DNA of 64,000 nt from Naegleria gruberi (taxonomy: Eukaryota): the NCBI GenBank assembly GCA_000004985.1, contig GG738859.1. One strand, written 5' to 3'. The notes below the pieces were generated by a model that did not search any database, was not told the origin of the DNA, and saw nothing but the letters and a program-made list of their open reading frames with translations. Position numbers and translations under genes: made by a program. Positions 4,400-54,648 of this stretch are shown in pieces. Each line of letters starts with the position of its first letter. The stretch's first letter is position 1.

Positions 4400-7300
4400 T
4401 TAAAGTTCTTCTTCTTCGTCCATTGGGGTATTCTTGAAAGCGTTGGCATAAGCATAGAGGCCAATCAATTTCTTGCCTATCGTACCCATCTCACAAATAG
4501 TACACAATTCACCATCATATCTTGGTAAATAAGCAGCTCCACAATATGAGCAAGCAATCTTGTCACTTCCTTGATAAATTGGAGTGTGTGAAATATTACA
4601 AACAACAAATGGATTTCTATCGTCATAATTCAATTCAATCTTGTCGGTAGGTTTGCTTTCCTTTTGTTGGGCCACATAGGCTGCTTGCTTTTGGATCTTT
4701 TCTGGAGGTCCCATCTTAAGCAATCTATTAGCAAATGTAGCTGCTGTTACAAAGTTTTCAAGTTTGAAGCAAATAGCCATGGCAGAATTCAAACCTAACA
4801 TGATGTGATTATTTCTCAATTTACATCTAGTGAAATAAGCTGCAAGTTCGGCTGCTCTCTTTGAATCAGTGGTCATAATATCCTTTCTGTCTAATTCCAT
4901 TCTGAAAGCACTGACGTATTCACAACAAGTAGATAAAGTTTCCTTGAATTCTCTTTCATCCTTCTTTGATAAGATTGGAAGGAACAATAATTGTCTCATA
5001 ATTTCACGTAACATGTCCAAACCATTCTTGATTGTATTTTGATTCGATAAGGCATTGAGAGCGTCCTTCAACTTTAATTGCAACTCAGAAAGTGTTGGCA
5101 CTGCAAGTTTAGGAAGGGTATTCTCTCTGGATCTCTCATTTTCTGATTTACCAGCTTGAAGTGCTAATGGAATACTTGGTTGACATGATGGAGAAGGCAT
5201 TAAAAGATTAGAACCAGCATAAATAGAGAGGAATAATTCTTTGAGAGGAGCAAAATTCTTGATACCAACAGCCTTTTGGAGAATTTCAATGGCAGAATCA
5301 AATGAACCAGCTGCAATGTGATTACCTGGGAATTGAGAATTGACTGGCCACATATCCAAAACGTTTCTTCCAGCATTTGGAGGAACAAAATTGCTTGATT
5401 GAGATGTGGAAATTTGAGCATCAGCAGGAATATCAATGAGATCATAGTCATCAACATTGATTTGATCCTCACCCATTTCATCCAAGTCTGATGGTGGAGG
5501 AACAGATTTCTTGCTTGTTGTGGCTTGTTCCATTCCTGGAATTTCAATACTATCACCGAATTGGTCAAATTCAAGTTCATCAATTTCACCCAAAGATTGA
5601 CCAACATCACCATAATCAATTTCTTGAGTATGTAAAAGAGGCCAGTTACCACCAGCATTGATTGGTACAGGAGGAAGGAAGAGGGAAGGCTTAAAGTTGA
5701 ATTCTGGCATCTTGAAATCTTCTGAGAGGGATTTTTTGACTTCTTCAGCAAGAGCATCCAAACCGTGATTCTTGGCAGTCATATAAGCCAATGCACTTTG
5801 GCCAACACTTTGAAGAACCTTAACTCTTTCTTCAACGTCACCAAGGAAGAGAGCATTGTGGAATCTGGACATTACATCATTTCTGCTGTTGGCAATCTTG
5901 AGCATCAATTTGAGACTTTCTTGATTACCAGTAACACTGTGCAAGAAGGAGAGTCTTTCGACATTCTTTGTTCTTTGATAAGCCTTTTCGACAGCAGAAA
6001 CATCACCTTGGTTCAAAGCTTCCAATCCCAAACTGTTCCAACATTCCTTCTTGTCCAACTTTTGGGCAACTTCAGAGGCAGTCTTGATATCACCACATTC
6101 AAGGGCAAGATTGAATTTGGTACTTTCATCTTCAACAAATTTGAGAGCAATTTCAGGATAACCCTTTTGTTGGAGGTAAGCAATAATGGAATCTCCAAGA
6201 ATCTTGGCTTCACCAATAATCTTCTTAATGTCACCAGTTCTTCCTTGAGATAAGGCAAGTTTGAATCTGTATTCAGTTGCATCAATAGTGATAACCTTGA
6301 CAGTACCTTCTCTATCAATAATTGTAACATTATTATTTTCAATATGGGCAATATAAATTGGGAGATCCAAAGTCTTGATTGTACCAAAATCACCTGATGC
6401 CAAACAATACTTCATGTGATTCAATGTAGTATAAATGAAAACACCATCCTTATCGAAGGCACCACTCTTAATACGAATGGTTTCAACAGTTGTGCAGAAA
6501 GGCTGCAAGTTACTATCACATACAACAACCAAGTGTTTTCCGAGTAAAGCAACTTTAGAGTTATCATCAGACCAAACAACAAACTTGATACCAGCTGAAG
6601 CATGGCTGGAAACAATCTTTTGTTGTTCCAAATCATACAAATGAACTCTATCATCAGTTGTAAAGATCAATCTACCAGAAACTGCTGGGAAAATTCTCTT
6701 AATTGGTCCGACAGTAATTGGAAGTTCCTTAGATCTGTCAGATTGTGTACTGTGAATGAAAATCTTTCTATCCTTTGGATCTAAAGTAGCAAACTTTTGT
6801 AAACCAACAAAAGCAGCAAAGAGGGCCTTTCCTTTTCTAATTGGGTTTCTAATTGGAACTTCATCAGTTGGTCCCTTTTTAATTTCAAACAATTCATAAG
6901 AACCACCATCATGATCTGATGTGAGAATTCCATAAGTGTTGGTTGGGTCAATACAAAGATTTCTTGTTGATCCTGACCATGATTTTCTCAAAACAGCAGC
7001 TGGAGCATCCTTGCCACCTTTAACAACTCTCAAATTCTTTTCCTTCATATACATGAGACAATTCTTGGAAGCAGTGAAAGCTGGTCTTTCTCTTTCCAAT
7101 TTGAAAACAATAAGACCACCATCATGACCAGCAGCAATAAGATTTTGAGTTGGGTGAACATCCAAAACCCAGAATCTTTCATATTCTCTCTTATAACTTC
7201 TAATGAATTGTGATTTTCCAATATCATAAAATCGGAGAGTTTTATCCTCACTGGCAGAAATAATCATATCCTTCTTTTCATGGAAAACTGCACAAGAAAC

Positions 7301-8269
7301 ATTGTGACCATGTCCTGAGAATGTATCAACAGCCCAAGCTCTTTGATCACTAACTTTCCAAGTTCTTACAGTTCTGTCATCAGAAGCAGAAACAATCATG
7401 TCAGTTTTTGGATGGAAAACAGCATAGTTTACACCTCTATCGTGTCCATCAAGAACATATTTAACCATAGCATCTCCAGAGTTAAAGAATTCTTGATTCA
7501 ATTGTGTTAACTTGAGGAATTCATCTCCTGGGCTCATTCCAACATTAGCATTCTTTTGTTTAAGTGCTGAAATATCCCAAACTCTGATAGATTGATCCAA
7601 AGAAGCGGAAACAACAAGGTCTTGTTTTGGATGGAATGATGCACTCATAACATAGTGATTATGTCCAGGTAAGACTGAAATACAAGTACGTGATTGCCAA
7701 TTCCAAATACGAATAGTTTGGTCATCAGAAGCAGAAATAATCCAAGGCTATTTTGTTAATCCACATAATATTATTTAAATTGTATCAAATTATTATCATA
7801 CAACAATAGTAAATATGTTAATAAATAAACAATAATCAAAATGTTGATAATTACTTGTTCGCGGTGGAATTCTACAGTTCTAACGTAATCGTAATGTCCT
7901 GTGAGTGTAAATAAACATCTTCTTAATTTATAATTCCAAACTTTGATTTTATAATCATCACCACCACTGACAAAAAGTGGTTGAGTACTATGGAAGTCCA
8001 ATCCTCTAACCGGTCCTATTGTATTATCATATCAACAATTAATACACACACCATAGAGCATTAAACACAATAACAATAAAACAACTTTAGATTTTTACAT
8101 TATAAAAAATCTTACCTTCATGTTCAAGATACGAGTCAATCATGGTACCCATTCTATAATCCCACAATTGAATAGCACCAGTGTGCAAGCTGGCCAAGAT
8201 CCACGATCGCTTTGGGTGGAAACTTAAACCTTTTACACGTTGGCTCTTGGTCTCGAATTTGATGATCAT
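4400..8269 (-). CDS. COPA: coatomer subunit alpha (COPA); exons 8116..8269, 7855..8015, 4400..7747
   Basis: N-terminus [23 protein letters not shown]40 repeats, and C-terminus match coatomer alpha. Introns 8016..8115 (GTAAGA..ATAG) and 7748..7854 (GTAATT..ATAG) are phase-consistent. About 1221 aa. Confidence 0.9.
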
Positions 8270-13083: not shown

Positions 13084-14739
13084 TTAATCAACAGTTGGCT
13101 TTGGAGTGTAACTCAAATTGGTAATCATTAACATGTCCAAAATACCCTTGAGTTGACATAATTTTTCTTGTGCTTGAATTTCTTGATTAATCTTCTTTCT
13201 CAAAGTTCTCAAAAGATTATCAACCTTTTCACTCAACCCCACAACTTGGCCATAATGTTTAAGAACAATTTGTGTGAAAGGAATGAGGGAGGTGGAAAAT
13301 CTAGGATCTCTAATGTGCATATTGATAAATTGTAAAACATTGGACAAACGTGTTTCATCCATAGCATTGATAGCATTCAAGGTTTCATTTCTAACTTCCA
13401 ATTCGGCAATCAAACTCATAACAATGACAGGTTGCTCCTTAAACTTGGTAACGGCCTTTTGCAAAGCAAGTTTGTAATTATATTTGGAGAGTTGAGACTT
13501 GAAGTGTAATAAATTTACAGATCTTTTTCCTGGTAAGAATATTTCTTCTTGCATTTCGAAAATTTGATTTAACAAGGCACTATTGACAAAGTTCTTATAG
13601 TTTTCCTTTGTCATTTCTTCTCTATAAATATCAGCTCTTAAAACTTTTCTATCAATTCTTTGAGATTTCAAAACTCTAGCAGGTCCATTCAATCCCAAAA
13701 CAATTTGTCTTTCATCTCTTGAAATGGCATTGGCCATAACTGGTCCATCAAATGAAATGTTGTGAATTTGATTATAATTTTCATCAATCTTGAAGAAACA
13801 TGTTAAATTATCCAAACCACTGGTCATTAAATAATTTCCACCACCTGATGCAAGTGAAAGGGATGTAATTGTTTTCTGGTGAGATCCATGCATGGTTAAC
13901 ATTTCCCTTCTTTGTAAAAGATCCCAAACTTTAAAGTAATTTCCACCACAACTGTACATGATTGGAGCAGTTGGATGTTTAACAACACACTCAACTGGAG
14001 CACCATGATCGAATTGCATGACACAAGCACTATTATCTGATTCTCTTACATCCCAAACCTTAATGAGATGGTCGTAAGCACCTGTTGCAAATAAATCTGG
14101 TGAAGAAGAAATATCATTGCTGCTTTCAGTTCCATTACTAAAGATACATCCTGCCTTGATGTAATCAGAGTGTCTTGAAAACTCTCTGACCTTCTTTCCT
14201 GAAATAATGTTAAATAATCTAGCAACACCATCATCACTACCTGCTAAAATATTGTCAGAATGTTGTTGAGAGAGGAATCTAGTTAATTGTATAGCTGTAT
14301 AATCATGTTCATTCTTTGAGCTTGTGAAAATAATTTTAATTGGTTGGTTCAATCTTTGTGCTGTCAATTCCTTGTCATAGGATTGAAAAAGTTTAACAAC
14401 ACCACTATTAGTACCAACTGCAAACAATAAACCATCTCCTGGTCTATAACTTGCACTATATAATTGAGAATCTCTTTGAAATTTAGTATATCGAATAATC
14501 TTTTTATATTCTTCATCAACTATTTGTACGGAATTTTTATGTGTGATGAGGAATTGTCGATTCCTTGTCGGATGAAATTCTATATGATTAACTAATCCAA
14601 AGTTCGAGCTATCAACAGGTGAGAACTCTGTAAAATTCTTCATTACATAGTTTTCATTTTGTGTTGTGTAGTTTCTGAGTCCATGACTCTCGTCCAATTC
14701 AATATTGGTTTGTTGTCGTGAAACTTTTTGAAGGAACAT
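13084..14739 (-). CDS. UTP15: U3 snoRNP protein UTP15-like (WD40 plus UTP15 C-terminal domain)
   Basis: WD repeats with HSDYIKAGC and YDHLIKVWD, plus a C-terminal helical region resembling UTP15_C. 551 aa. Confidence 0.7.
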   Translation of the reverse strand: MFLQKVSRQQTNIELDESHGLRNYTTQNENYVMKNFTEFSPVDSSNFGLVNHIEFHPTRNRQFLITHKNSVQIVDEEYKKIIRYTKFQRDSQLYSASYRPGDGLLFAVGTNSGVVKLFQSYDKELTAQRLNQPIKIIFTSSKNEHDYTAIQLTRFLSQQHSDNILAGSDDGVARLFNIISGKKVREFSRHSDYIKAGCIFSNGTESSNDISSSPDLFATGAYDHLIKVWDVRESDNSACVMQFDHGAPVECVVKHPTAPIMYSCGGNYFKVWDLLQRREMLTMHGSHQKTITSLSLASGGGNYLMTSGLDNLTCFFKIDENYNQIHNISFDGPVMANAISRDERQIVLGLNGPARVLKSQRIDRKVLRADIYREEMTKENYKNFVNSALLNQIFEMQEEIFLPGKRSVNLLHFKSQLSKYNYKLALQKAVTKFKEQPVIVMSLIAELEVRNETLNAINAMDETRLSNVLQFINMHIRDPRFSTSLIPFTQIVLKHYGQVVGLSEKVDNLLRTLRKKINQEIQAQEKLCQLKGILDMLMITNLSYTPKPTVD

Positions 14740-22021: not shown

Positions 22022-25000
22022 TTAAATTGTAGGAGGGTTTACATTTTCGAAAGATTCAAATGCTACAATTTCATCCATAACAAGCCAATAAAATGTAATA
22101 CCAAAGAAATCTCTCATTTTCCTCTTCTTATTGTCATTTCTTACAGCAATATAGAAAACTGTGGCAACTGCTTGTCTTGGAAATACTTTACTCTCATAGT
22201 CGTCCAATACTTCAACTGCCTTGTCATGATAATATTTGGTGAAATGTTTAACAATTTCACTAATTTCCAATTTTAGTTTGTAATGGTTCTTTCCACATCT
22301 GACCTCTAATTCCTTTGTATTGAAAAATCCTCCTAATAATTCAACTTCTGATGAGACAAAGTATTGTTGCATGAGCTTTCTCAAATCTGATTTGTACTCT
22401 TCATAAATTTCTAATGCTGCATTGTAGGCGTGCATTATATTTTCATCAAAATAATCCCAGTCGTCATCTATGAGCATTGTTTTGAGATTAGGAAGTTTGA
22501 TAAAGACAGCATCTAAAATTTCAAGATGAGGATCCAGTTTTATCTCTTGAATAGAATCTAGAATGCCAAGCTTTTTTCCGTGAACTGTTTTTTCAAAAAA
22601 GACAGCCTTATCATAAATACTTCCAATAACATCTTCAGAGTGATATGTTTTCTTACCAAAAACTCTTGGCATATAGTGAGGTCTACTGTTGGAGAAAAGT
22701 TCAGTAGGAAGTGGTTTTCTGACACCAGTTTTGGCATAGTCAACTTGATAACTGTGGTGTTTGGCCAATTTCAAACAAGGTTCACTTCTTAGCCCATCCC
22801 CCTCCTTATCGTAATGTTCCAAATGCAAGAATGCAACAACACCAAGGTTGTCATTAATAATGTACTCTGTTAAGAATTCTCTAATAACTCGATAGTCACA
22901 TCCGTCGTGCTTTTCTTCAGGTGGAAGTCCCTCATAATTCATTGGGGGATATTCCTCAAAATTAACTAGGAGTGGATCCCAAAATACTTGGAAAAAGTCG
23001 CCGTCATAGTCGCCTCCACTCATTTTGTTAGCTGCAGGTCTATTGCCTTTTTGGCTGAATACAATTACATCTCTAAGGTGTGATAATTTGCTAATCTTTT
23101 CTGGATCTGTAACAGCTTTGAACTTTCTAATGTCACCAGGGTGAAGGCATGGTGATCTTGTAATTGCTACAGTTCCACTCAAAGTGCCACCATTCACAAA
23201 ACAATTGTCATCATAAAGATCAGAGTCAGAGTTTTCCAATTCAGAAAGTTGGATAAATACTTCATCCTCTTCCAACACTCCATAAAAGTCCACAACTCCC
23301 ATCAATAAAAGAGCCTTGTCAAGAATAATTCTACCATTCTTGAGATCATTCAATCTGTTTCTGATCAAACTATCCTTGATATTGCAAAATACTGGTTCTA
23401 TTTGGTAAAAGAATTTAATGTCCTCTCCCGATTGCACAACTTTAGAAAAGTCGTATTGAGAATCCAAATAGTTGAGAGAGGCCACTTTCTTCATATTCTT
23501 TCCAACGATATTATCTTGTGATTTTCTCAACACTCTCCTCATATACTTCTTATCATTAAATAACTTTTTGATTTCTTCAAGATCTCTATCGAGTAGTTGT
23601 AAAAATACCGAATCTGATACCTTATTGGAACTCAATAAAGCAATCAATTGTCTATTCAAACTAGCAAATCTATTTCTTTTCGAGTAAGTAATCAGTTCAA
23701 ACTCGCTACTGGAGGAATCTATGAACTTTTCCTGACTCTTAGATAGGAGAAGATCCAAATCTGAATATAAATGAATATCAGGATCTACAACAACAACTCC
23801 CTTCAACCCTCCCATACGAAATTGGAATGCTGATGGTATGTATTCTTTGCCAGCAAATGAGATTTGGAATTTCTTGGTTAATTCTACAGCAAATTCTAGT
23901 GATATTCTTCCTACACCATCTGTAAACACATAATTGTTTCTGGTAATGTCTGGAATAATTTCATACTCTTTTGAGATGCCTTCATACGTGTGTGAAAAGC
24001 ATTGTCCAATTCTTGCTGCATACCTTGCTTTAACTTTGATATGAGAAAAATTACCAAGAGAATTGATAATATTTCTTGGGGTGAAACTTCCATTCGAATA
24101 AACGAACCAAGAACTGGAACATTGTTAGAAATGTTTGAAATAATATAAGACGTACCTGTGGGCTCTAAGTTGACTGGTAGAATAAGCAAGCATTTCATAT
24201 TTTCTGTTAAAAACTAGAAGGCCCTTCTTTAGCACAATCTCAATTCTCTCATGCAAGTTTGTAAATTTTTCAGCACTAAGTTTATGAAGATCTTCATCGC
24301 AGAATGTGATTCTCAAAAAGTGATCTTCATTCTTTTCCTTATATTTTCTCAAAACTCTATTACCACCCTCAACTGATTTGTCAAAAAATCTCCAACCTGT
24401 TGGTGTAATCATTACTTTACGAATATTGAAAAAGTTTGTATCAAAATCAATGAATGCCGTGTCATTATGTTTCAATTTTTGATCAGCTAACCGTTGATTG
24501 AAATGTTCTAGGAATTCAGATGGATAGATGTTTTTCTCATTCAATACTTCTCTCATGGCACGGTCAACCATTTCATAGTCATGATCTTTGTTAATATATC
24601 TTGTAATAGTGTCCACTATTGCTTCCAATCTTTCTCTATTGTGTAGAATTCCTGGTATCTTAGTATCTAAGCAAAACAGCAAATATACTGTATTGAAGGA
24701 AAAATTATGAAACAATGGAAAGTCCAAGCTTTCATCATATTGGAATGTATCGATTTGCTTCCTTTTGATTTTCTTATCTCTCATTACCAAAGGATATGGA
24801 TAATTATGACCCTTCAGTAGGGAACTCACATCAGATGAAACAGTGAGCAGTAGAGATCTACCCCATCTGAAATTGTTCAACCACATGGATGATATGCTAT
24901 CTTGTTGTGAATAGTCAGGAGCTGCCATTCTTGTACGAAATGCTTCATCAGGCCTCTTACGGTAGATGAATGGCACATTTCTAAGTTCAATGGCTAATTC

Positions 25001-26068
25001 TGTGACACCAACAATAACACGTCTCACATTCTCTCGCTTAATGTCCATCCAATAGTCATGATTAGAGTTGAATGTTGCTTGTAATTTAATATCACCAGTT
25101 GCAGACCAGTATACTAATGATACCTTTCTCTCCAATAATCCATGTCCTACTTGTTCCTTATTTACACATAAAAATGTTTCATGCTTATTGTCATCAAAAT
25201 TACCAATCTCCATATTTATCCAGTTTAACTCCACTGACCCATACTCCACTAAATCATTGGGTTTTTCAGATTTGGTTGTTGATTTTGATGATGTTACACT
25301 TTCTTCAATTATTACAGGTGGTCCAATAATCTGCACAGGTTGTTTCTTCTTTTCTTTGGCCTTATCCTTCTTTTGAGTTGGTTCCTTCTTTTCCTTTGGT
25401 TTTAGACTGGGAAAGTTATTTTCATTATCAAGGGCCACAGGTTTTGGTGGCTGATTGACAATTACAGGTTGATGAATATTGGTAACTGGTGGATTGTGAA
25501 TTCTATCATTATCATTCCTCCTATAATTGTTATTTCCTCCTTTATAATTATTATTGTCTCCTCTTTGCTCTTTATATTCTCGATTATTATTATTTCCTGA
25601 ATATTCCCTATGCTTACTCGATTTATCATTGTTATCATTGAAATTATTATTATTATTGTAATTATTATTTCCTCTATATTCTCTATTGTTGTTGCCATTA
25701 CGCGAGTATCTATCATTATTATCATTGTAATTCTTCTGATAATTATTATTGTAATTGTAATTATTATTTTGATAATAGCGATTAGGAGGAGGCTTCTTGC
25801 TATTATCATAACTGCTACCATTACTCGGATTGATTAAATCACCAGTAGTATTATTAATTATATAATTTCTCGCTTTGTTTTGTTGATAAAAAGCCTTTTT
25901 CTGAGATGATTCGGAAACATGTTCCTCTGAATCATTAATTATTAATTCCTCTTCATTATGATGAGAACTACTACTACTACTACTACTTGCTCCACCATTC
26001 CTAGTACTACTTGCTCCTCTATAAATCTGATAATGTTGCTGATTTGTCTTTTGATTGGGATTAAACAT
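22022..26068 (-). CDS. eukaryotic RNA-dependent RNA polymerase (RdRP; RRF/EGO/Rdp1 family) with N-terminal prion-like low-complexity domain; exons 24156..26068 and 22022..24113
   Basis: Catalytic motif GGDYDGDFFQVFWD plus flanking RdRP blocks. One 42-nt intron (24114..24155, GTACGT..CCAG) joins the two ORFs in phase. About 1334 aa. Confidence 0.85.
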
Positions 26069-26665: not shown

Positions 26666-28390
26666 ATGTCACTCACTGTTTATTCGAAACCATCATCATT
26701 ATTCGAAATTAATGAAATACTTAATACAGTTTCCTCCCTTTATGCTTCATCTTTAAATTCTACAACTAACACCTCAATGATACCATGTGATTTGCGGATT
26801 TTTGAAATGTCATACCTCTCAACAAAACCCAACATGACAGCACAAGATTATAACAATATTTGCCCCGACACAATATTCGTTCCAATAGTTGCATGGATTG
26901 AAATTGCAATCTTCATTCCCTTATTTCTTCTCTCATTTATTGGAATTATTTGGAAGAGAAAAAGTGGACACATACAGGCGAGGAATCTCTCTTGTCTAAT
27001 TCCCATACTCATTGCTTCCTTTTTCTCAACCATCTTCCCATCATTGAGGTGGGCCTTAGGGAGAGATCTCTTTCCGTGTGGTGTTTTAATTTTTATATTA
27101 TTTCACACGTCGTGGGCAATGATTCTACCGCCAATACTTAATATGTTTTCCTTTATTGTGAGACATGCCTTGTACAGGTTATTGACTGGGAATTTTAAGG
27201 ATTTGAGTGATCAGTTGGGAATGGATAGGAATTCATTAAAATTAGATGTTAAAAAACTTTCGAATACGATGGAGGAAATGCAACACGCAGCCGAGTCGGT
27301 CATGCAAAATTCGACATCGATAGGATCTGTCAGCACTTTGCAATCAAATTCCGATCTAACAGCCACAAAAAGCAAATCAAAAAGTGCTGATTTAGTGAGT
27401 ACTATTGGCTCTTTGGATTTTACTCCAAATGAAGTGAGATTATTCAAATTTTACAAGTTTTTATTAAGTGCCAAATTTCGAGTACTGACCTATTTGATTT
27501 GTTTTGTGATTCACATATCGTTGTGGTTGATTTTGGGCTTAATTCAATTGACCAATCCTGAGTCTGCCTCTCCATATTACAATACTGGAATTAACAATTT
27601 TTTTGGAGCTTGTACGATGCATTCAGGAACAGTGGCAGTTTTCTGTGGATTATTTGCATCTTACTTGGCTGCTCTGGTTGTCCTGCTCTTGATTTCCTTC
27701 TTCTTGGAGAAGGATACATGGGGAATCAAAATAGAAACTTCAGTAATGAGCATTCTCCTCCTCATTGCTGTCATTAATTATCTTGTCTGTCCATACATTA
27801 CCATTATAAGAACTTATACTGATTATTTCTTTCCGTATGGTCAATCGATGGTTATGTATTCCATCATTCAACTCTTTGTTTTTGTAACCATTCCACTGTG
27901 CAGATCCATAAAAGGAGATGGGATATTTCCAGAGGAAATTGCTTCCACAATGTTCGAAAGAATTCTCCTCAATAAGGAAACTTTCAAAATAGCCCTCGAT
28001 TTCAGCAGGAGATCCTACTGTTCAGAACCAGTCCTATGTTTCGACAATATTGAAAATTATAAGAAAGCTCGAAGAAAATCAAACAAGCTCAAAATTGCAC
28101 TTCACATTCTCAATACCCATCTGAAGAAAGGTGCTCCACTCGAGTTGAATATTGACAAGATTGAGGAACGATTCAAATCACTCCAAGAGAACATTTCCAA
28201 TCAGGATGAGAAGAAAATTGATGAAGAAGTTGGATTGTTGAGAATTCACTGTTTACAAGACATGTCTGAAATGATGTATCGATTGATTTTGAGTGATAAG
28301 GTAGTTAAAGAGGTGGCAATGATGAATTCTGGTAAAATTCCAGTGGATTCACTAAATTCACCAGTTTCGTCTGAACTTTCTAATGTTTAA
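26666..28390 (+). CDS. seven-transmembrane receptor with C-terminal RGS domain (7TM-RGS)
   Basis: About 7 hydrophobic helices in the N-terminal 400 aa, then an RGS-like segment (IASTMFERILLNKETFKIALDFSRRSYCSEPVLCFDNIENYKKA...). Confidence 0.6.
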   Translation: MSLTVYSKPSSLFEINEILNTVSSLYASSLNSTTNTSMIPCDLRIFEMSYLSTKPNMTAQDYNNICPDTIFVPIVAWIEIAIFIPLFLLSFIGIIWKRKSGHIQARNLSCLIPILIASFFSTIFPSLRWALGRDLFPCGVLIFILFHTSWAMILPPILNMFSFIVRHALYRLLTGNFKDLSDQLGMDRNSLKLDVKKLSNTMEEMQHAAESVMQNSTSIGSVSTLQSNSDLTATKSKSKSADLVSTIGSLDFTPNEVRLFKFYKFLLSAKFRVLTYLICFVIHISLWLILGLIQLTNPESASPYYNTGINNFFGACTMHSGTVAVFCGLFASYLAALVVLLLISFFLEKDTWGIKIETSVMSILLLIAVINYLVCPYITIIRTYTDYFFPYGQSMVMYSIIQLFVFVTIPLCRSIKGDGIFPEEIASTMFERILLNKETFKIALDFSRRSYCSEPVLCFDNIENYKKARRKSNKLKIALHILNTHLKKGAPLELNIDKIEERFKSLQENISNQDEKKIDEEVGLLRIHCLQDMSEMMYRLILSDKVVKEVAMMNSGKIPVDSLNSPVSSELSNV

Positions 28391-28407: not shown

Positions 28408-30807
28408 ATGTCACAAAGTGCCAACTTAAGAAAGTGTACCAGAAATGTTTCAATTTGTGGTGAATACGCGAGCGGAAAATCGACTCTCGCCCAATTACTA
28501 ATCAACCATGATTTAACAAACAATGTAAAAACACAAATTCTATTCGAAAGTACTTTCCAATCACAATTATATTCTACAAGTAAAAAATTAAATTCCTCTG
28601 ATCATCAAGAATATTCCATCAATTTATTGGATTGTCCTGGTAGGTTAGAATTAGTCTCCCAAGTCAGCACAAGTTTCAGATTGACCGATAGTTGCATAAT
28701 GTTATTCGATTCCACTTCAAAACTGGGGAAATATACAGAATTAATTACGAGACAAATTTCACAAGAGAATATTCCTCTTCTTATAATGTTAAACAAATTG
28801 GACGACTTGTTGATGGATTGCGATTTTAGTTTGGAAGAAATTTACAAATTATTATTGAAAATTATTGATTCGGTCAACTTGATGATTAGTACAAGTTGTA
28901 GTGATGTGAGTGGTGGTAAATTGAGTTTGGAAAATGTGGTGTTTGGATCTGTCAAGCAGGGATGGGCATTTACATTGAAAGATTTTGCCAAGTTTTATTC
29001 GAAACAATTAGGAATGAATCAAGAAGAATTGGTAGAGAAATTGTGGGGTGATTATTATTATGACACAGAAAATGGCCAATGGATGAATCAATCGAATGAA
29101 AATGTATTAGAAAGGGGGTTCTGTCAATTTATTTTGAAACCTATTCGAAATGTCTTATTGGCTTGTGGCGATTCACATTTTCATCAAGTAGAAGAATTGC
29201 TAAATCCTTTTGGAGTAACTCTTTCAGAATATGATGACCATTCAAAGAAAGAATTAACCAATTCAATCATCATGCAGAAATGGTTGCCAGCCAGTGATTC
29301 AATCCATGACTTGATTTGTAATAGTTTACCTTCTCCTGAAATGGCTCAACAATACAGAGCTCAAAATCTCTATTCTGGTTTACTTTCCGATAAATTTGGG
29401 TCAGCAATCAAGAATTGTGATCCAAATGGTCCTTTAATGATTCACATTTCTTCAAACAACATTGTAAATGGAAAGATTTATGCAGTGGGTAGAATATTTT
29501 CAGGATCTTTGAAATCAGACACATTAATTAGAATATTTTATTCAAAGGATGTATTTGAGGAAAAAGTGCTTGGTGGAATGGTAAATTTCAATGGTTTACT
29601 TGTTGAACCAATTGAAGAGGCAAGTTGTGAATTCAATTCGATTGTTGGACTGGTTGGAATTGAAAAGTATCTAACAAACAAGGGAGCTACCATTACTGAG
29701 AGCACAGAATTGGAAGCTAAATCATTTACTAGTGTGAATTCTCTCAATTTTCCAAAGATTAATATTTATGTGGAACCTAAAAAACAAGTTAATCTTCCTA
29801 AAATCATCAAAGGAATGGAACTGATTGCCAAATGTGATTCTTCAATTTCCCTATCTTTGGATGAAGAAACTGGAGAGAAAATACTAACAATATTGACTGA
29901 ATCTCATTTGAATTCAGTGCTAGATCAATTCCAACAACTATATCCAAATATTGAACTTGAATTGTCTGAACCAATATTAAAATATCAAGAAACTGTAACA
30001 ACTGAATCAGCCAATATAACGTTTGTGAAAACTCCAAACAAGCACAATAGATTATGGCTCACAGCTAAAACTCTCCAAGAAGAGATATCCAATTATATTG
30101 AATCAGGAAAATTACCAGAAGATTCTACGGAAAGAGCCAGAGTATTGAACGAGAGGTTTGGATGGGATCCTCTGGATGCCAGAAAGATTTGGTCATTCGG
30201 TAGAGATACTACTAGAAATATTGGAGCCAATGCAAATGCATTCGTCGATCAGACAAAAGGAGTTCAATACTTGAATGAGATTAGGGATTCGATTTGTCTT
30301 GGTTTCCATATTGCTGCACAAGAAGGTCCTTTATGCAATGAATTAATGCGAGGTGTTCGTTTCAATCTCAAAGATGTGACCCTGCATTGTGATGCTCTTC
30401 GTAGATCAACTGGGCAAATATCATCAGTAGCAAAGAGAGGTTGTTACGCCTCCATGTTAGATGCACAACCAACCCTAATGGAACCAACATTATTAATGGA
30501 ATTTAAATGTGGACAATCTCAATTGGGAACTCTCTTTTCAATTCTCAATGAAAGGAGAGGAATTGTGTTGGAACAGGAAAATTTCAAATCTTCAACCTTT
30601 GGAAAAGCTTATTTACCAGTTTCGGAATCGTTCGGAGTTGTGGACCATTTGAATAAGCTAAATATTTCTTCTCAATTCATTTTCGATCATTGGAAACCAA
30701 TTACTGCAAACTCAACTCGATTATTAGAAATTGTGAATAGAATTCGTCTCAGAAAAGGACTGCCCGAACAAGTTCCCACCTACACCGAACTAGTAGATAA
30801 ATTATAA
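28408..30807 (+). CDS. divergent eEF2-family paralogue lacking the G3 catalytic His and the diphthamide His
   Basis: Strong eEF2 blocks (WAFTLKDFAKFY...KLWGDYYYD, GPLMIHISS...YAVGRIFSG, FDHWKPI...RKGLPEQVP). G1 reads SGKST, G3 reads DCPGR and G4 reads NKLD. ATG at 28408. Confidence 0.8.
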   Translation: MSQSANLRKCTRNVSICGEYASGKSTLAQLLINHDLTNNVKTQILFESTFQSQLYSTSKKLNSSDHQEYSINLLDCPGRLELVSQVSTSFRLTDSCIMLFDSTSKLGKYTELITRQISQENIPLLIMLNKLDDLLMDCDFSLEEIYKLLLKIIDSVNLMISTSCSDVSGGKLSLENVVFGSVKQGWAFTLKDFAKFYSKQLGMNQEELVEKLWGDYYYDTENGQWMNQSNENVLERGFCQFILKPIRNVLLACGDSHFHQVEELLNPFGVTLSEYDDHSKKELTNSIIMQKWLPASDSIHDLICNSLPSPEMAQQYRAQNLYSGLLSDKFGSAIKNCDPNGPLMIHISSNNIVNGKIYAVGRIFSGSLKSDTLIRIFYSKDVFEEKVLGGMVNFNGLLVEPIEEASCEFNSIVGLVGIEKYLTNKGATITESTELEAKSFTSVNSLNFPKINIYVEPKKQVNLPKIIKGMELIAKCDSSISLSLDEETGEKILTILTESHLNSVLDQFQQLYPNIELELSEPILKYQETVTTESANITFVKTPNKHNRLWLTAKTLQEEISNYIESGKLPEDSTERARVLNERFGWDPLDARKIWSFGRDTTRNIGANANAFVDQTKGVQYLNEIRDSICLGFHIAAQEGPLCNELMRGVRFNLKDVTLHCDALRRSTGQISSVAKRGCYASMLDAQPTLMEPTLLMEFKCGQSQLGTLFSILNERRGIVLEQENFKSSTFGKAYLPVSESFGVVDHLNKLNISSQFIFDHWKPITANSTRLLEIVNRIRLRKGLPEQVPTYTELVDKL

Positions 30808-30935: not shown

Positions 30936-32099
30936 TTAAAATTGATTCCTATTGGGTGTTTCCCAAAGTGGAATTTCTGTAAATTCGTTTGTGGGATCAA
31001 TCAGGATTGGAGTTTCGTTTCTAATAGATGGAGTCCAGTGAGAAATTTCAGATTTTATAGAATCTACTCTGAATTCCTCCTTTCGAACAATATCTACAGT
31101 ATTCACAGCTGCTTGAGATTTGGCATCTCTTTTAATGGTTTCAACAGTATCATTTGAGCTAGCTCTAATTTCTATCATGATATTATCCAAAGGACCAAAT
31201 GAAAACGTTACAAAAACACAAAATGATAACAAGGTTATTTTGTGGAAAAGAATGCATACGGGATAAATCTGAATAAATATTCCAAATGCAGCAGATCCTA
31301 CTATCAATGAAATCAAATTGAAAATTGCCATATAAAGTTGGCCAAATGTTAATAAAAGCAAATTTCTACATGATTTCTTACGTTGCTCTGTGATTGGAAA
31401 CTTTTGATTGAGTAATAACTTTCTGATAAGCAACACAACAATAGCCATATTTAGTAATGAGTAATAAATTGTTACTAAACTTGTAATTGAAATGTAAAGT
31501 CCAAACATGGCTTCACCAACTTGTTTGAAAATAAGAAAATCCGTTTCAGACAATAGCTTCCTGTCAGCGTCATAATATCTGAATATATTTGAAGAGATTA
31601 CAAAACCAACAATTATTACGAAAATCAAGTTGACTGTTACAATCAGCGAAATGCTCAATATTGTGATAAATCGTGAAATATAGTGTCTCTTCTTATTCAT
31701 TCTCATCCATTCATGTGATTTGTTAAAGAATAATTGATTTAAAATCTTTGTAATAAAACATTGGCAATTGACACAAGCAGCAATTGACAAGTAAAAGATA
31801 GATTGTTCCAATGATGAACTGACTACTATATAAATTACTTCCAAATCAAGTAGTAAACAAATACAAGTACCCAATCCAACAATTTGAAAAATTTCTTCCA
31901 ATATAAATAATGATAGAATTACTGAATAAAGTATTTTCTTATTGGAAACCATTTTCTTATAATTTAAAATAAAAATTGAAAGCATAAACAATGTTATGAT
32001 AAGGAATATGAAGAATCCGATTCCATCGAATATAATTTTAAAGCTGCACGTCACTGTTCTCACTAAATGAGGTGTCGTCGCATTCACATCAGTTGACAT
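30936..32099 (-). CDS. multipass (about 7TM) membrane protein, receptor-like, with hydrophilic C-terminal tail
   Basis: 387 aa ORF with seven hydrophobic segments and no recognisable family motif. Confidence 0.45.
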   Translation of the reverse strand: MSTDVNATTPHLVRTVTCSFKIIFDGIGFFIFLIITLFMLSIFILNYKKMVSNKKILYSVILSLFILEEIFQIVGLGTCICLLLDLEVIYIVVSSSLEQSIFYLSIAACVNCQCFITKILNQLFFNKSHEWMRMNKKRHYISRFITILSISLIVTVNLIFVIIVGFVISSNIFRYYDADRKLLSETDFLIFKQVGEAMFGLYISITSLVTIYYSLLNMAIVVLLIRKLLLNQKFPITEQRKKSCRNLLLLTFGQLYMAIFNLISLIVGSAAFGIFIQIYPVCILFHKITLLSFCVFVTFSFGPLDNIMIEIRASSNDTVETIKRDAKSQAAVNTVDIVRKEEFRVDSIKSEISHWTPSIRNETPILIDPTNEFTEIPLWETPNRNQF

Positions 32100-32170: not shown

Positions 32171-33019
32171 CTATTTATTCGATATAACTTCCAATTTGAT
32201 AAACCATCCTCCATCTACAGCTTGTTTTTCATCAGCAGCTCCAACAGGACATGTCCAACCACAATATCCACCCCCAGTCAATGAAATAATTTGGTCATCC
32301 TTTGAGAAATTCCAAGTTCCATAACTACAATAACCGTTATGTAAAAAGCTAACACTGAATTTGAAAGGAGTACCACTCAGATCACACATTGCTCTTCCGT
32401 CATCGACTGAACCCCCTTCACAACCAAAACAAGTTGCATACGAAACTTCCTTTGTTTTCCAATTATGATGATTACATACGCCAGTTGACTTGGAAAATGT
32501 ATGATCTCCTGTATGAATCATTAAAGTTTCTGGATTAATTCTCAATCGATACCAACGAGTTATAATATCAGCATCATTCCAACTCCAGGGTTTTCTTCTA
32601 GGAACAGTATAGGTTGAGTAATTATTAGTTGGAGAAGGCAAAATTAAATAGTAACAATTCTTGGCTCCTTGATAGAATGTATATGTTCCATAATTTGGTA
32701 TTTCAAATTCTTGATATCTGTACGAACAAGAAACCAAATACCAATTCCAACAAGTCAACTGAAAACTCAAACAAGTCTCCTCATCATTCTCAATAAACCC
32801 AAAAATCTCCCTCAATAAATCATCAGGAATTACAAATGTTTCCATCACTGATTTTTTATATTGTGATTCAACACTTTGGAATAATAAATCATTAATATTG
32901 GAGAGGAATTGGTGGGATGATGAGGTTGTGGACGTTTCATCAGAATGATGATCCTTCTTGTTGTGATGAGAAGAGGAATTTGATGATGAATTTTTAGAGA
33001 AGAGTTTGCGAAGGACCAT
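32171..33019 (-). CDS. F-box-like protein with Cys/Trp-rich C-terminal domain
   Basis: IPDDLLREIFGFI resembles the F-box core. N-terminal S-rich tract. 282 aa. Confidence 0.45.
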   Translation of the reverse strand: MVLRKLFSKNSSSNSSSHHNKKDHHSDETSTTSSSHQFLSNINDLLFQSVESQYKKSVMETFVIPDDLLREIFGFIENDEETCLSFQLTCWNWYLVSCSYRYQEFEIPNYGTYTFYQGAKNCYYLILPSPTNNYSTYTVPRRKPWSWNDADIITRWYRLRINPETLMIHTGDHTFSKSTGVCNHHNWKTKEVSYATCFGCEGGSVDDGRAMCDLSGTPFKFSVSFLHNGYCSYGTWNFSKDDQIISLTGGGYCGWTCPVGAADEKQAVDGGWFIKLEVISNK

Positions 33020-33116: not shown

Positions 33117-33791
33117 TTAATTAGCGAATTGATCATACTGAGCTCTCACAGCAACCATTTGATCAGGATACAACAATCCAACAAATCCCAAAATACCATA
33201 ATAGGAAGCAGATAAAGCTGCAATAATCAAAGCCATCACTAATGGTTTCTTCAATTTATATCCAAGAGCAATATTCAATCCATAAATAGTATGATACAAT
33301 CCACATGCCAATAAGAATCCAAAGAATCCCAAAGCACCTACCATACCCATTTCCTTCTCAGCCACAAAAGCAATTGAAGCAAATGAAGCATTAAATGAAT
33401 TTTTAAATCTATTACCAAAAATGTGCATTGGAATAAGGAATGAAAGAATATATCCAGTAATACTGTGTAATTTCTTTGATAATGAAGCTGTTGCTGCTTC
33501 GACTTCTGCTGCCTTCTTTTGAGTGAATGAGAGAAGTGAATTGACAAACATGTGAACAGCAAGTGGAGCGAATACGACCAAACCCTCAACAATCATATTT
33601 GGTCTATAAATTCCTCTAGTTGTTTCCAGAACAGAATCATATTTCAATGGAGATAAGGCTGCAGAAATAGTTGTAGCCACGTGTAAGGTTACAAAAACTG
33701 AGAAGGTAATTCCCGACCAACGTTGCAATTGCTTCAACATTTTAGGAGGTGGTGATGGTGGAACGGACATTGACTTGGCGCTTTGAGACAT
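33117..33791 (-). CDS. multipass membrane protein of unknown function
   Basis: 224 aa ORF with 5-6 hydrophobic helices and a Pro-rich N-terminus. Confidence 0.45.
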   Translation of the reverse strand: MSQSAKSMSVPPSPPPKMLKQLQRWSGITFSVFVTLHVATTISAALSPLKYDSVLETTRGIYRPNMIVEGLVVFAPLAVHMFVNSLLSFTQKKAAEVEAATASLSKKLHSITGYILSFLIPMHIFGNRFKNSFNASFASIAFVAEKEMGMVGALGFFGFLLACGLYHTIYGLNIALGYKLKKPLVMALIIAALSASYYGILGFVGLLYPDQMVAVRAQYDQFAN

Positions 33792-41675: not shown

Positions 41676-42818
41676 ATGTCCTCATCTGTCGGCGCTACTC
41701 TTGAAGCTATCAAATATACTCGTGGATCTTTGGAAATTCTTGACCAATTGCTCATTCCGAAGTCATTTATCTATGAAGTTGTTGATACAACTGAAAAGGC
41801 TTTCCATGCCATTAGAGATATGAAAGTTAGAGGTGCTCCAGCTATTGCCATTGTTGCCGTTTTGACCTTGGCTGTTGAAGCTAACCAACTTTTGCAAAGT
41901 AATGATGCTCTCTTGGCTGATGCTTCTGCTATTGCTAAATTATTTAATGAAAAATTGGATAGATTGGCTGAAAGTAGACCAACCGCTGTCAATTTGTTCC
42001 AAGCTGTTGGTGATTTTAAGAATAAGATTGCTCAATCACTTGAAACTAACAAGACTGGTACCGAAATTGTTCAACTCATCATTGATGAAGCTGAAGCCTT
42101 GATGAATAGAGATATTGAAGAAAATGCTAAAATTAGTGAATGTGGTAGTGATCATATCATTTCAACCAATCCATCGAGCACTACTTTGAAAGTTTTGACT
42201 CACTGTAATACTGGTGCTTTGGCTACTATGAAGTATGGTACCGCATTGGGTGTTATTCGTTTCTTGCAAAAGAAGAATGTTTTGGAACATGCCTTCTGTA
42301 CTGAAACTAGACCATACAATCAAGGTGCTAGACTCACTGCTTTCGAATTGGTCTATGAAAAGATTCCATCTACATTGATTTGTGATTCTGCTGTTAGTTA
42401 CTTGTTCAAGACTAAGAAGATTGATGCTATCATTGTTGGTGCTGATAGAGTTTGTAATAATGGTGATACTGCCAACAAGATTGGTACTTATCATATTGCT
42501 GTTAGTGCTAAACATCACGGAATTCCATTCTATGTTGCTGCTCCATTCACATCTATTGATTTGACTCTTGCTTCTGGTGATTTGATTACCATTGAAGAAA
42601 GAAGTGAAAAGGAAATTACTCACTATAGAAATAATGATGAACGTGCTGTTGTTGAAAATATTGGTGTTTGGAATCCAGGTTTTGATGTCACAACTGCTGA
42701 TTTAATTTCTGGTTTCTTTACTGATATTGGTGTTTTCACTCCATTGACCTGTGCCACTACTGGTAAGAAGTATTACGATTTAAAGACTCAACAAGCTGAA
42801 AAGTTGAAACAACAATAA
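41676..42818 (+). CDS. MRI1: methylthioribose-1-phosphate isomerase (MTNA/MRI1; eIF2B-like family)
   Basis: The full 380 aa length shows the eIF2B-related/MTNA pattern (RGAPAIAIVA..., GADRV.NGDTANKIGTY). Confidence 0.85.
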   Translation: MSSSVGATLEAIKYTRGSLEILDQLLIPKSFIYEVVDTTEKAFHAIRDMKVRGAPAIAIVAVLTLAVEANQLLQSNDALLADASAIAKLFNEKLDRLAESRPTAVNLFQAVGDFKNKIAQSLETNKTGTEIVQLIIDEAEALMNRDIEENAKISECGSDHIISTNPSSTTLKVLTHCNTGALATMKYGTALGVIRFLQKKNVLEHAFCTETRPYNQGARLTAFELVYEKIPSTLICDSAVSYLFKTKKIDAIIVGADRVCNNGDTANKIGTYHIAVSAKHHGIPFYVAAPFTSIDLTLASGDLITIEERSEKEITHYRNNDERAVVENIGVWNPGFDVTTADLISGFFTDIGVFTPLTCATTGKKYYDLKTQQAEKLKQQ

Positions 42819-52431: not shown

Positions 52432-54648
52432 ATGTCTCGAAAGACACCCAACAGTAAACAACAACAGAAGAAGGTTACGTTCAAGGTTGATGAACATAAT
52501 ACTCCCGAGTCTGTTTTGGTTGAATATATTAAAGTGGGGCAAACTGAGGATATTGAGCAATTGTTTAAGGACTTTTTGATTGATCCTAACTTGCCAATCT
52601 ATGATAAGAATGCTCCTCCTCCATCGGAAAATGATGAACAACAGCCACCGACTAAGGTTGTTAGTGATTATCCATTCCTGTTGGCTACAAGGTTGGGATT
52701 TGTTGATGTTGTTAATATACTTGTAAAGAATAGGGCAAATATAAATATTAGATTGAATGGAGATAATGCCTTCCACATTGCAGTTTTAAATAATGATGAA
52801 CCAATGCTAAAGGCTTTGTTTGAAGTGGAGGCACCCCATCAAATCAAAAAGGGAGCTATGAAAAGAATTGACATTGATTGTGAGAATGATAAGGGATTCA
52901 GACCAATTGATATTGCAATTCAAAACAATAATGCTAGTGTAGTGAGGATTCTGTTGGAAGCAGGGGCTGATTTTGATTTTGATGAGTTAGGGCATGATGA
53001 TCACACTCTCCTCCATCAATCGGCAATAGATGGTGATATTAAGAGATTTAACTTTTTATTGGAATTGAAACAATCACCATACAAGAAGGATGTTAAAAAT
53101 GGAAAGAACATTTTGCACTATGCTGTACTGCATAACAGGAAGGAATTTATTGAGCATTATTCAAAATTGAAATTGGACGAAAACTTAATTTATGGAGAGG
53201 ATATGATGAGAATGACTGCTGTACATGAAGCATGTTTAGCTGATAATTGGGATATTGTCAAGCTATTGACAACAAAATTCAACTTTGACATTAATATGAT
53301 ATTCACTGATAGTATGGCTCTATTGCACAGATTTACCTATTTAAAGAAGCTCGATATTTGTGAAAAAATTATTGGTTTGAAAGCTAAAGTAAACGGAGTG
53401 GACAAGTACGGTAATACACCATTGCATTGGGCTTGTAGTTCAGGTTCTTTGGAAATGGTCAAGTATTATATTGATAAGAAGCTGCCTATCACTGATGTCA
53501 ACAATTTGGGAAATACACCTCTTCATATTGTGTCTCATCTAGGATTTTTTGAGATTGCTGAATTCTTAGCAACTGACAAAAAGATCAATGTGAATGTACT
53601 TAATAAGGAAAATAGAACGCCTCTAATGGAGGCTGTTTCAAAGGGTCACATCAAAGTTGCAGAGCTATTGATGATGAAGGGAGCAAATATTACATTAGAA
53701 GATTCAAAAGGTATGACTCCCCTTCAACTAGCCCTCAATGACAGACAAGAGTCTTGTTGTATCCTTCTCGTTACCAAAGGCGCAGTTGTAAATAGAAAAT
53801 TCGTTCCGTTCATGAGGGAGGCAAGTTTGAGCGACATTAAACAGTACATGTTCCACAACACTGAAGAATGTGCGACTCTATCCAATTACGAGCAAACAAT
53901 GGAGAAACTGAAGCAAGCAGATCCAGGTTTCAAAACAATTTTCCAACAAGCTGTTGCTTACAATATGACCTCCCTTGTTAGAGAAATGGTTAAGAAACAT
54001 GAATGTCCTCTAGACGAAATTGATGTGAATGGCTATACACCACTCATGAATGCTGTCAGAAATCAGAATAGAGAAATTGTAAAAATACTCACAGCTGCAG
54101 GAGCTAATGTACATTATCATGAACCAGTGTGTGGAATTACACCACTGATTCTCTCTACCAAGCTAGGAAATTTAGATATTTGCTCTCACTTAATTCACGA
54201 CTGCAAGGTTCCAACAACTGATGTTGATGAATGCTCTAAGAAAACAGCTCTTCATTATGCATGTAAAGTTGGCAATACAGAAATAGCGAGATTGCTCCTT
54301 ATTAATGGCTCTAAGGTGGACCAAGCTGATTCCCATTCTAGAACTCCTCTCTTTGAGGCTTGTGAGAGTGGTTATCCATCCGTTTGTGAATTGCTATTGA
54401 ATAATGATTCAGATATTGAACATAGAGACAAGGAAGGATTCACCTGTGTTCACATGTGTTGTTTCAGTGGACAAGTCGAATGCTTACAGGTCCTTATTGA
54501 TTATGGAGCCAATTTAAATTCTAAAGACAATGCAGGAAGAACTCCGTTAATAGTGTCTTCTCAAAGTGGGCATACCCTATGTGGCAGATCACTGGTGCAA
54601 GCTACAGCAAGAAAAAACATGATCCAACAACAAGCTTTTTTTGATTAA
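52432..54648 (+). CDS. ankyrin-repeat protein (about 20 ANK repeats)
   Basis: Repeated G.TPLH.A...G/H....LL..GA motifs throughout the 738 aa ORF. Confidence 0.8.
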   Translation: MSRKTPNSKQQQKKVTFKVDEHNTPESVLVEYIKVGQTEDIEQLFKDFLIDPNLPIYDKNAPPPSENDEQQPPTKVVSDYPFLLATRLGFVDVVNILVKNRANINIRLNGDNAFHIAVLNNDEPMLKALFEVEAPHQIKKGAMKRIDIDCENDKGFRPIDIAIQNNNASVVRILLEAGADFDFDELGHDDHTLLHQSAIDGDIKRFNFLLELKQSPYKKDVKNGKNILHYAVLHNRKEFIEHYSKLKLDENLIYGEDMMRMTAVHEACLADNWDIVKLLTTKFNFDINMIFTDSMALLHRFTYLKKLDICEKIIGLKAKVNGVDKYGNTPLHWACSSGSLEMVKYYIDKKLPITDVNNLGNTPLHIVSHLGFFEIAEFLATDKKINVNVLNKENRTPLMEAVSKGHIKVAELLMMKGANITLEDSKGMTPLQLALNDRQESCCILLVTKGAVVNRKFVPFMREASLSDIKQYMFHNTEECATLSNYEQTMEKLKQADPGFKTIFQQAVAYNMTSLVREMVKKHECPLDEIDVNGYTPLMNAVRNQNREIVKILTAAGANVHYHEPVCGITPLILSTKLGNLDICSHLIHDCKVPTTDVDECSKKTALHYACKVGNTEIARLLLINGSKVDQADSHSRTPLFEACESGYPSVCELLLNNDSDIEHRDKEGFTCVHMCCFSGQVECLQVLIDYGANLNSKDNAGRTPLIVSSQSGHTLCGRSLVQATARKNMIQQQAFFD

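Follow-up and report, generated by a model that had tools for sequence, protein, structure and literature searches.

We analysed a stretch of 64,000 nucleotides from contig GG738859.1 of Naegleria gruberi (hereafter the window), in which the gene NAEGRDRAFT_32442, located at positions 28408 to 30807 on the plus strand, encodes a divergent paralogue of the translation elongation factor eEF2. eEF2 is normally a single, extremely conserved and essential motor protein. The paralogue is, with near certainty, incompetent for GTP hydrolysis. It keeps the shape of eEF2 and its A-site tip, has lost the elements that couple the ribosome to hydrolysis and is under purifying selection, and can therefore be regarded as a natural ‘dead-motor’ variant of the factor. 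That divergent eEF2 copies exist in N. gruberi is known already, as several were noted in passages of Atkinson 2015; what we describe here are the motif states and, with them, a hydrolysis-incompetent eEF2 derivative.

Family assignment and loss of the GTPase centre

The coding sequence is complete, as supported by the list of open reading frames (ORFs), the Pfam matches and the match to eEF2 in the Protein Data Bank (PDB). It runs without introns from the ATG at 28408 to the stop codon at 30805–30807 and specifies an uninterrupted protein of 799 amino acids with the full five-domain architecture of EF-G and eEF2 (Pfam GTP_EFTU, GTP_EFTU_D2, EFG_III, EFG_IV and EFG_C). When compared with all solved structures using phmmer, the best match was eEF2 (E 1e-153, 516 bits), as opposed to 304 bits (1e-89) for the spliceosomal GTPase Snu114 and 215 bits (1e-62, fragmentary) for EFL1, and the identity to eEF2 amounted to 34–39%. 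In a phylogenetic tree, the eEF2-like sequences, including the window protein and its closest relatives, were split from Snu114 with 100% bootstrap support. The acidic N-terminal extension of Snu114 is missing, as is any other added N-terminal or partner-binding extension, and the P-loop and switch II differ from the GHxHHGKT and DTPGHVNF motifs of that protein. EFL1 (Ria1) was not the best match, and the 799-residue protein has no large insertion in domain II. These features assign the window protein to the eEF2 subfamily and not to Snu114 or EFL1, in agreement with an earlier note that had read it as an eEF2-family paralogue from the DNA alone and had called for a phylogeny.

To quantify the divergence, we took 233 alignment columns with a conservation of 97% or more among approximately 227 eEF2 sequences and counted the canonical residues in them. 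The window protein deviates at 111 of these 233 near-invariant positions, all catalytic elements included. The G domain (Pfam GTP_EFTU, amino acids 11–189, positions 28438–28974) is degenerate, with 37% of its near-invariant positions kept and 63% changed. In residue-level alignments, the G1 motif or P-loop reads GEYASGKST (amino acids 18–26, positions 28459–28485) instead of AHVDHGKST, meaning that the GxxxxGK[ST] pattern and its GKST are kept, while the AHVDH signature is lost and its Asp is replaced by Ala. According to section 12 of Atkinson 2015, this Asp binds a monovalent cation in translational GTPases. Canonical eEF2 has about 21 more residues between G1 and G3, and the window protein lacks the switch I/G2 motif RFTDTRxDEQxRGITIKST, including its RGITIKST part and the region of the Thr that is targeted by eEF2 kinase. 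What is left of switch I (amino acids 34–64, positions 28507–28599) was modelled with low confidence by AlphaFold2. Switch I supplies the Mg-coordinating Thr. Lastly, the G3/switch II motif reads DCPGRLELV (amino acids 75–83, positions 28630–28656) in place of DSPGHVDFS, and the catalytic His (His108 in eEF2), which the EF-G and Snu114 literature describes as being positioned by the sarcin-ricin loop, is Arg79 (codon AGG, nucleotides 28642–28644).

The motifs for contacts with phosphate, Mg and guanine are kept, namely GKS/T in the P-loop, the Asp and Gly of DxxG, the NKxD motif of G4, which confers guanine specificity (NKLD, amino acids 129–132, positions 28792–28803), and the Ser of G5. With its nucleotide motifs kept and the P-loop Asp, switch I and the catalytic His lost, the protein fits the sequence pattern of a pseudo-GTPase, nucleotide binding itself being a prediction. 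Because the catalytic His and switch I are both lost, we infer from the mechanism of translational GTPases that the protein would neither hydrolyse GTP upon activation by the ribosome nor cycle as a translocase. Moreover, given that 63% of the near-invariant G-domain positions are changed, the protein, judged by its sequence, cannot be the working translocase. The earlier note had predicted impaired GTP hydrolysis, which was right in direction and understated in extent, since the protein has in addition lost switch I and the Asp of the P-loop; neither the loss of about 21 residues around switch I nor the Asp-to-Ala change had been recognised there.

The remaining domains have diverged to very different degrees. 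The eEF2-type G' (G'') insertion (approximately amino acids 179–310, positions 28942–29337) is well preserved, with 89% of its near-invariant positions kept, and the C-terminal helix keeps 100%. Domain IV (EFG_IV, positions 30121–30468) retains 76%, domain V (EFG_C, positions 30475–30660) 58% and domain II (GTP_EFTU_D2, positions 29482–29697) 46%, with deletions of two and six amino acids nearby that are specific to the window protein and its relatives. Domain III (EFG_III, positions 29752–29943) is strongly diverged, at 39%. One loop of the domain IV region is essentially retained as TPNKHN (canonical SPNKHN, positions 30031–30048). The diphthamide loop reads HCDALRRSTGQ (amino acids 660–670, positions 30385–30417) as compared with HADAIHRGGGQ, and thus keeps the D..xR..GQ pattern; the equivalent of the diphthamide His699 is Arg665 (codon CGT, nucleotides 30400–30402). 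All motifs quoted in the earlier note (GEYASGKST, DCPGR and the Arg-containing diphthamide loop) therefore hold at the residue level, and both His residues are truly Arg (Arg79 and Arg665) and had not been misread.

The NKLD motif lies in a segment that is missing from the public gene model, a discrepancy that the earlier note had also passed over. NAEGRDRAFT_32442 (XP_002679015.1, UniProt D2VAA0; P0001 in our numbering) is deposited as a protein of 753 amino acids, of which a 126-residue prefix and a 626-residue suffix are identical to the window ORF, whereas nucleotides 28788–28925 have been spliced out as a GT..AG intron. As this 138-nucleotide segment (plus strand) is in frame and encodes both the G4 NKLD motif and a helix that is conserved in every eEF2 and in the two closest relatives, the intron is almost certainly spurious and the segment coding, and the true product probably comprises 799 rather than 753 amino acids. 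Hence, the public gene model would be wrong at this locus, and UniProt gives the protein a misleading name, ‘Elongation factor 2’. Look-ups of the exact products for P0001, for the second N. gruberi relative described below (P0003) and for the 799-residue protein returned no record.

An AlphaFold2 model, built from an alignment of 56 sequences, reached a mean predicted local distance difference test (pLDDT) score of 81.6, with low confidence at residues 35–64 and in a short loop at residues 601–605; within the switch I remnant, values fell below 50 at residues 35–48, 56–60 and 62–64. Foldseek aligned this model with eEF2 over its full length, and the best matches were chains of that factor, many taken from 80S ribosomes that were dormant or bound by SERBP1. 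Its inter-domain arrangement superposed better on spliceosomal Snu114 (template modelling (TM) score of approximately 0.75) than on eEF2 conformers from crystals or bound to the ribosome (TM 0.53–0.66), with a sequence identity in Foldseek of 25% for Snu114 versus 34–36% for eEF2. This better superposition probably carries no functional signal and stems from the conformation that the model happens to prefer.

Close relatives, phylogeny and selection

Among 5.8 billion proteins, we found two close relatives. The first, P0003, is the product of a second N. gruberi gene (XP_002682387.1; 51% identity), whose model is partial, with 718 amino acids and a missing N-terminus. The second, P0002, is an environmental orthologue (64% identity) encoded by an intronless gene on a contig of 2961 nucleotides (locus L001, ENA contig ERZ929261 k127_177344). 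The window protein groups with both of them at 100% bootstrap support, and in the split from Snu114 this clade falls on the same side as eEF2. Scanning the JGI metagenome contigs with the single protein yielded no relatives, and a scan of the same contigs with a profile of the clade produced only matches at the level of canonical eEF2 (approximately 35% identity). Furthermore, protein and cluster searches detected no orthologue in other sequenced Naegleria species. A neighbour-joining placement of the clade as sister to paralogues from Archamoebae was rejected as long-branch attraction, as its bootstrap support was at most 18% and the diagnostic indels were not shared.

All three members of the clade carry Arg in place of the catalytic His, the switch II sequence DC(P/I)GRLE and the same indels, while the window protein has the degenerate P-loop and the switch I deletion in common with P0002 (P0003 lacks its N-terminus). 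The G4 motif of P0003 is NKLE and not NKLD. Both relatives, in turn, have the domain IV loop features of canonical eEF2, including the diphthamide His and the loop glycines (DAIHRGTGQ and DSIHRGAGQ). The two His losses, which the earlier note had correctly reported side by side, therefore have separate histories: since the catalytic Arg is found throughout the clade and the diphthamide His is kept in both relatives, the loss of the catalytic His is old and ancestral to the clade, whereas that of the diphthamide His is recent and restricted to the window copy. The codon of Arg665, CGT, differs by a single transition from the CAT (His) of the orthologue, and Arg is otherwise mostly encoded by AGA in the window gene. 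Nearby Gly-to-Ser and Pro-to-Ser changes likewise occur in the window copy alone within the clade.

The ratio of non-synonymous to synonymous substitution rates (dN/dS) between the window gene and its orthologue was 0.25 with the NG86 method, 0.16 with YN00 and 0.35 with LWL85, and it stayed below 0.4 in every domain, the G domain included. Given these values and the intact ORFs of all three clade members (718–799 codons without stops), the window gene is not a pseudogene but is selectively maintained under purifying selection. At approximately 20 positions that are near-invariant in eEF2, a different residue is fixed within the clade, which points to new constraint rather than drift. Nevertheless, the gene evolves much faster than eEF2, as shown by an identity of just 64% at a synonymous divergence (dS) of approximately 0.9–1.3.

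With regard to the other eEF2 genes of N. gruberi, the supplementary table of Atkinson 2015 lists nine eEF2-class, twelve eEF1A-class, two Snu114 and one Ria1 protein for this organism. On the basis of this count, it is very likely that a canonical eEF2 is encoded elsewhere in the genome, as the earlier note had expected. Its sequence was not recovered in our homologue search with a G' profile, which returned short unrelated eEF2 fragments and missed the query itself. Neither the motif states nor the function of the divergent N. gruberi eEF2 copies were described in the literature that we searched.

Known systems and possible roles

Several known systems resemble the window protein in part. 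With canonical eEF2 (yeast EFT1/2, PDB 1N0U), it shares the five domains, the G' insertion, NKxD, a loop of the SPNKHN type and the greater part of domain IV, but it differs in its P-loop, in the deletion of switch I/G2, in the replacement of His108 and His699 by Arg and in small deletions of its own clade; of the near-invariant positions in its domains G, II and III, only about 40% are conserved. Snu114, the GTPase of the U5 snRNP, is an ancient, five-domain paralogue derived from eEF2 that works without hydrolysis: it is permanently GTP-bound, its catalytic His can be mutated without a phenotype, and it serves as a platform and not as a motor. Unlike the window protein, which falls outside the Snu114 group, it keeps the canonical GHxHHGKT and DTPGH motifs and carries an acidic N-terminal extension of approximately 125 amino acids. 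In archaea, an additional EF-2 paralogue, aEF-2p, has no diphthamide His and is not considered to act as a translocase (Narrowe et al. 2018, PMC6143161). In this respect it is similar to the Naegleria protein, yet the pattern of loss is the opposite, as aEF-2p kept G1–G5 and lost both domain IV loops, whereas the Naegleria protein lost the catalytic G elements and kept most of the domain IV loops. Ski7, a member of the Hbs1/eRF3 family in yeasts, binds GTP without hydrolytic activity and acts as an adaptor. A passage of Atkinson 2015 describes it as a recent paralogue of Hbs1. Like the window gene, it is thus a recent, lineage-restricted paralogue of a translational GTPase, although it belongs to the EF1-like family with another architecture and has a known function with the exosome and the Ski complex.

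We consider that there is about an even chance that the window protein is a static, guanine-nucleotide-binding and non-hydrolysing mimic of eEF2, which would sit on ribosomes without translocating them. According to this proposal, the protein would still bind guanine nucleotide and dock in the factor-binding site of the ribosome, with domain IV reaching towards the A site. The sarcin-ricin loop could not activate it, and neither cycling nor translocation would follow. Such a mimic would compete with eEF2 and might either park or protect ribosomes that are idle or slow down elongation, for instance when the amoeba encysts or differentiates. The regulatory or decoy eEF2 with ribosome binding that the earlier note had proposed is a reasonable prediction in this light. 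This is the most economical reading because the ribosome-facing parts of the protein, namely the A-site loops and G', are preferentially preserved. G' contributes to the groove with which the EF2 of archaea and eukaryotes docks to the P-stalk. In many PDB entries, eEF2 itself is found on dormant or hibernating 80S ribosomes, and, by analogy, Snu114 supports the notion that a member of the eEF2 family can work permanently GTP-bound without hydrolysis. If ribosome binding holds true, the genome would encode a protein that statically occupies the factor site, which bears on ribosome hibernation and the throttling of elongation in cyst-forming amoebae.

Several observations weigh against this reading. 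The ribosome-contacting domains II, III and V are heavily altered, such that ribosome binding could be lost; the tip of domain IV in the window copy is itself decaying through the His-to-Arg, Gly-to-Ser and Pro-to-Ser changes; and nucleotide binding without switch I could be weak or absent. Fast evolution and a very narrow family would also fit a role that is dispensable or changes rapidly. In an exhaustive search of 1.84 billion cluster representatives with a hidden Markov model, nothing scored between the cluster of the clade (1472 bits) and canonical eEF2 (631 bits). In addition, the literature on the locus tag and its accessions and on EF-2 biology in Naegleria yielded no functional data.

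Part of this evidence would also fit a role away from the ribosome, where the protein could serve, similar to Snu114, as a nucleotide-locked scaffold or platform in another ribonucleoprotein or protein complex. Snu114 demonstrates that an eEF2-derived protein can work off the ribosome without GTP hydrolysis, the strong divergence of domains II, III and V is in line with such a role, and the AlphaFold2 model points weakly in the same direction (TM 0.75 to Snu114 versus 0.65 to eEF2 conformers). However, the preservation of precisely the A-site loops (PNKHN and D..xR..GQ) and G' is hard to explain off the ribosome, the protein has gained no extension with which to bind new partners, and the family is very young and narrow, which is why we deem this role rather unlikely. 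Alternatively, the gene might be a redundant duplicate under relaxed constraint that is heading for loss without any distinct function. The numerous eEF2-class and eEF1A-class genes of N. gruberi (nine and twelve, respectively, in the supplementary table of Atkinson 2015), a dN/dS of 0.16–0.35 that is high for a translation factor, the recent damage to the diphthamide loop of the window copy and the lack of a detected orthologue in other sequenced Naegleria species would all be expected in this case. Yet three diverged lineages keep ORFs of 718–799 codons without stops (the model of P0003, with 718 residues, is partial), purifying selection acts on every domain, and many derived residues, including GRLE in switch II, are fixed across the clade, arguing for new constraint instead of drift; we accordingly hold redundancy to be unlikely.

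A further idea is that the protein acts as a decoy that would sequester bacterial toxins targeting eEF2, or other factors that bind eEF2, such as eEF2 kinase or the diphthamide enzymes, in an amoeba that feeds on bacteria. Both relatives keep the diphthamide His and its loop, and degenerate paralogues turn up repeatedly in organisms that are phagotrophic or live in soil (dictyostelids, Archamoebae, a rotifer and a nematode-trapping fungus), although this evidence is circumstantial. As the window copy has no diphthamide His, it could not be ADP-ribosylated on diphthamide, the region of the eEF2-kinase site is deleted and no supporting literature was found, so that a decoy function seems very unlikely. 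Finally, the UniProt label ‘Elongation factor 2’ and the fact that the canonical N. gruberi sequence was not recovered could suggest that the window protein is the working, or even the sole, eEF2, or else that its aberrant motifs are artefacts of sequencing or annotation. We regard the chance of either as negligible, considering that 111 of 233 near-invariant positions are changed with all catalytic elements among them, that the supplementary table of Atkinson 2015 counts nine eEF2-class genes in the genome, that the same changes are present in the independent metagenomic orthologue and that the spurious intron of the public model was the sole artefact found.

Degenerate eEF2 copies in other eukaryotes and the genomic neighbourhood

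We also surveyed the best 150 cluster representatives (proteins P0232–P0379), among which many full-length eEF2-like proteins showed damage in G1, in switch I or in G3, or changes in the diphthamide loop. They originate from dictyostelids, Archamoebae, fungi, an oomycete, a rotifer and a foraminiferan, with named sources being Dictyostelium discoideum, D. purpureum, Tieghemostelium, Pelomyxa, Entamoeba marina, Adineta vaga, Dactylellina haptotyla, Cunninghamella, Cladochytrium, Aspergillus lucknowensis, Aphanomyces and Nonionella (examples are P0236, P0238, P0247, P0249, P0254, P0258, P0234, P0237, P0289, P0294, P0311 and P0279). For instance, the protein from Dactylellina carries DTPGR, and the diphthamide His is replaced by Arg in those of Tieghemostelium, Cunninghamella and D. 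discoideum. As the indels of the Naegleria clade are missing from these proteins, and as any sister grouping with it had a bootstrap support of at most 18%, the degenerate copies probably arose independently of that clade. Some of the entries may be faulty gene models. Nonetheless, the survey suggests that degenerate eEF2 copies constitute a recurrent and unstudied class. We raise, as a tentative and unlikely generalisation, that the Naegleria genes are one instance of a convergent, so far unnamed class of GTPase-dead eEF2 mimics in free-living protists, fungi, oomycetes and rotifers, with repeated His-to-Arg changes at the catalytic and diphthamide sites, whose members would occupy the eEF2 site without turnover as ribosome-parking (hibernation), translation-damping or anti-toxin factors.

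Within the window, the gene directly upstream on the same strand (26666–28390) encodes a multi-pass, seven-transmembrane protein with an RGS domain, and its stop codon lies 17 nucleotides before the ATG of the eEF2 paralogue. Since this gap leaves no room for separate 3' and 5' untranslated regions or for a promoter, the two transcripts would have to overlap or be co-transcribed. Fusion or co-translation of the two genes was rejected, as they are in different frames without a plausible intron and the orthologue has an independent start; on its contig (L001), the orthologue has a different and divergently oriented neighbour 158 nucleotides upstream. A functional linkage to the neighbouring genes was likewise rejected, because these encode an RNA-dependent RNA polymerase (RdRP), a metallophosphatase and other unrelated proteins.

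The RdRP matches stem from two adjoining ORFs on the minus strand, 22022–23929 and 24125–26068, which correspond to positions 162–581 and 1–91 of the Pfam RdRP profile, respectively, and presumably represent one RNA interference-type polymerase gene that is split by an intron of approximately 195 nucleotides. On the other side of the eEF2 paralogue, neither the ORF at 30936–32099, which encodes a multi-pass membrane protein, nor the one at 33117–33791 had a Pfam match, while the gene at 32171–33019 (minus strand) specifies a 282-residue protein with a Ser/His-rich N-terminus and a weak match to the GON domain (E 3.5e-5). Rfam and tRNA scans of the window gave no matches. Housekeeping genes at 4400–7648 (minus), 13084–14739 (minus), 41676–42818 (plus) and 52432–54648 (plus) encode COPI alpha, UTP15, an eIF2B-family protein (IF-2B) and a large ankyrin-repeat protein.

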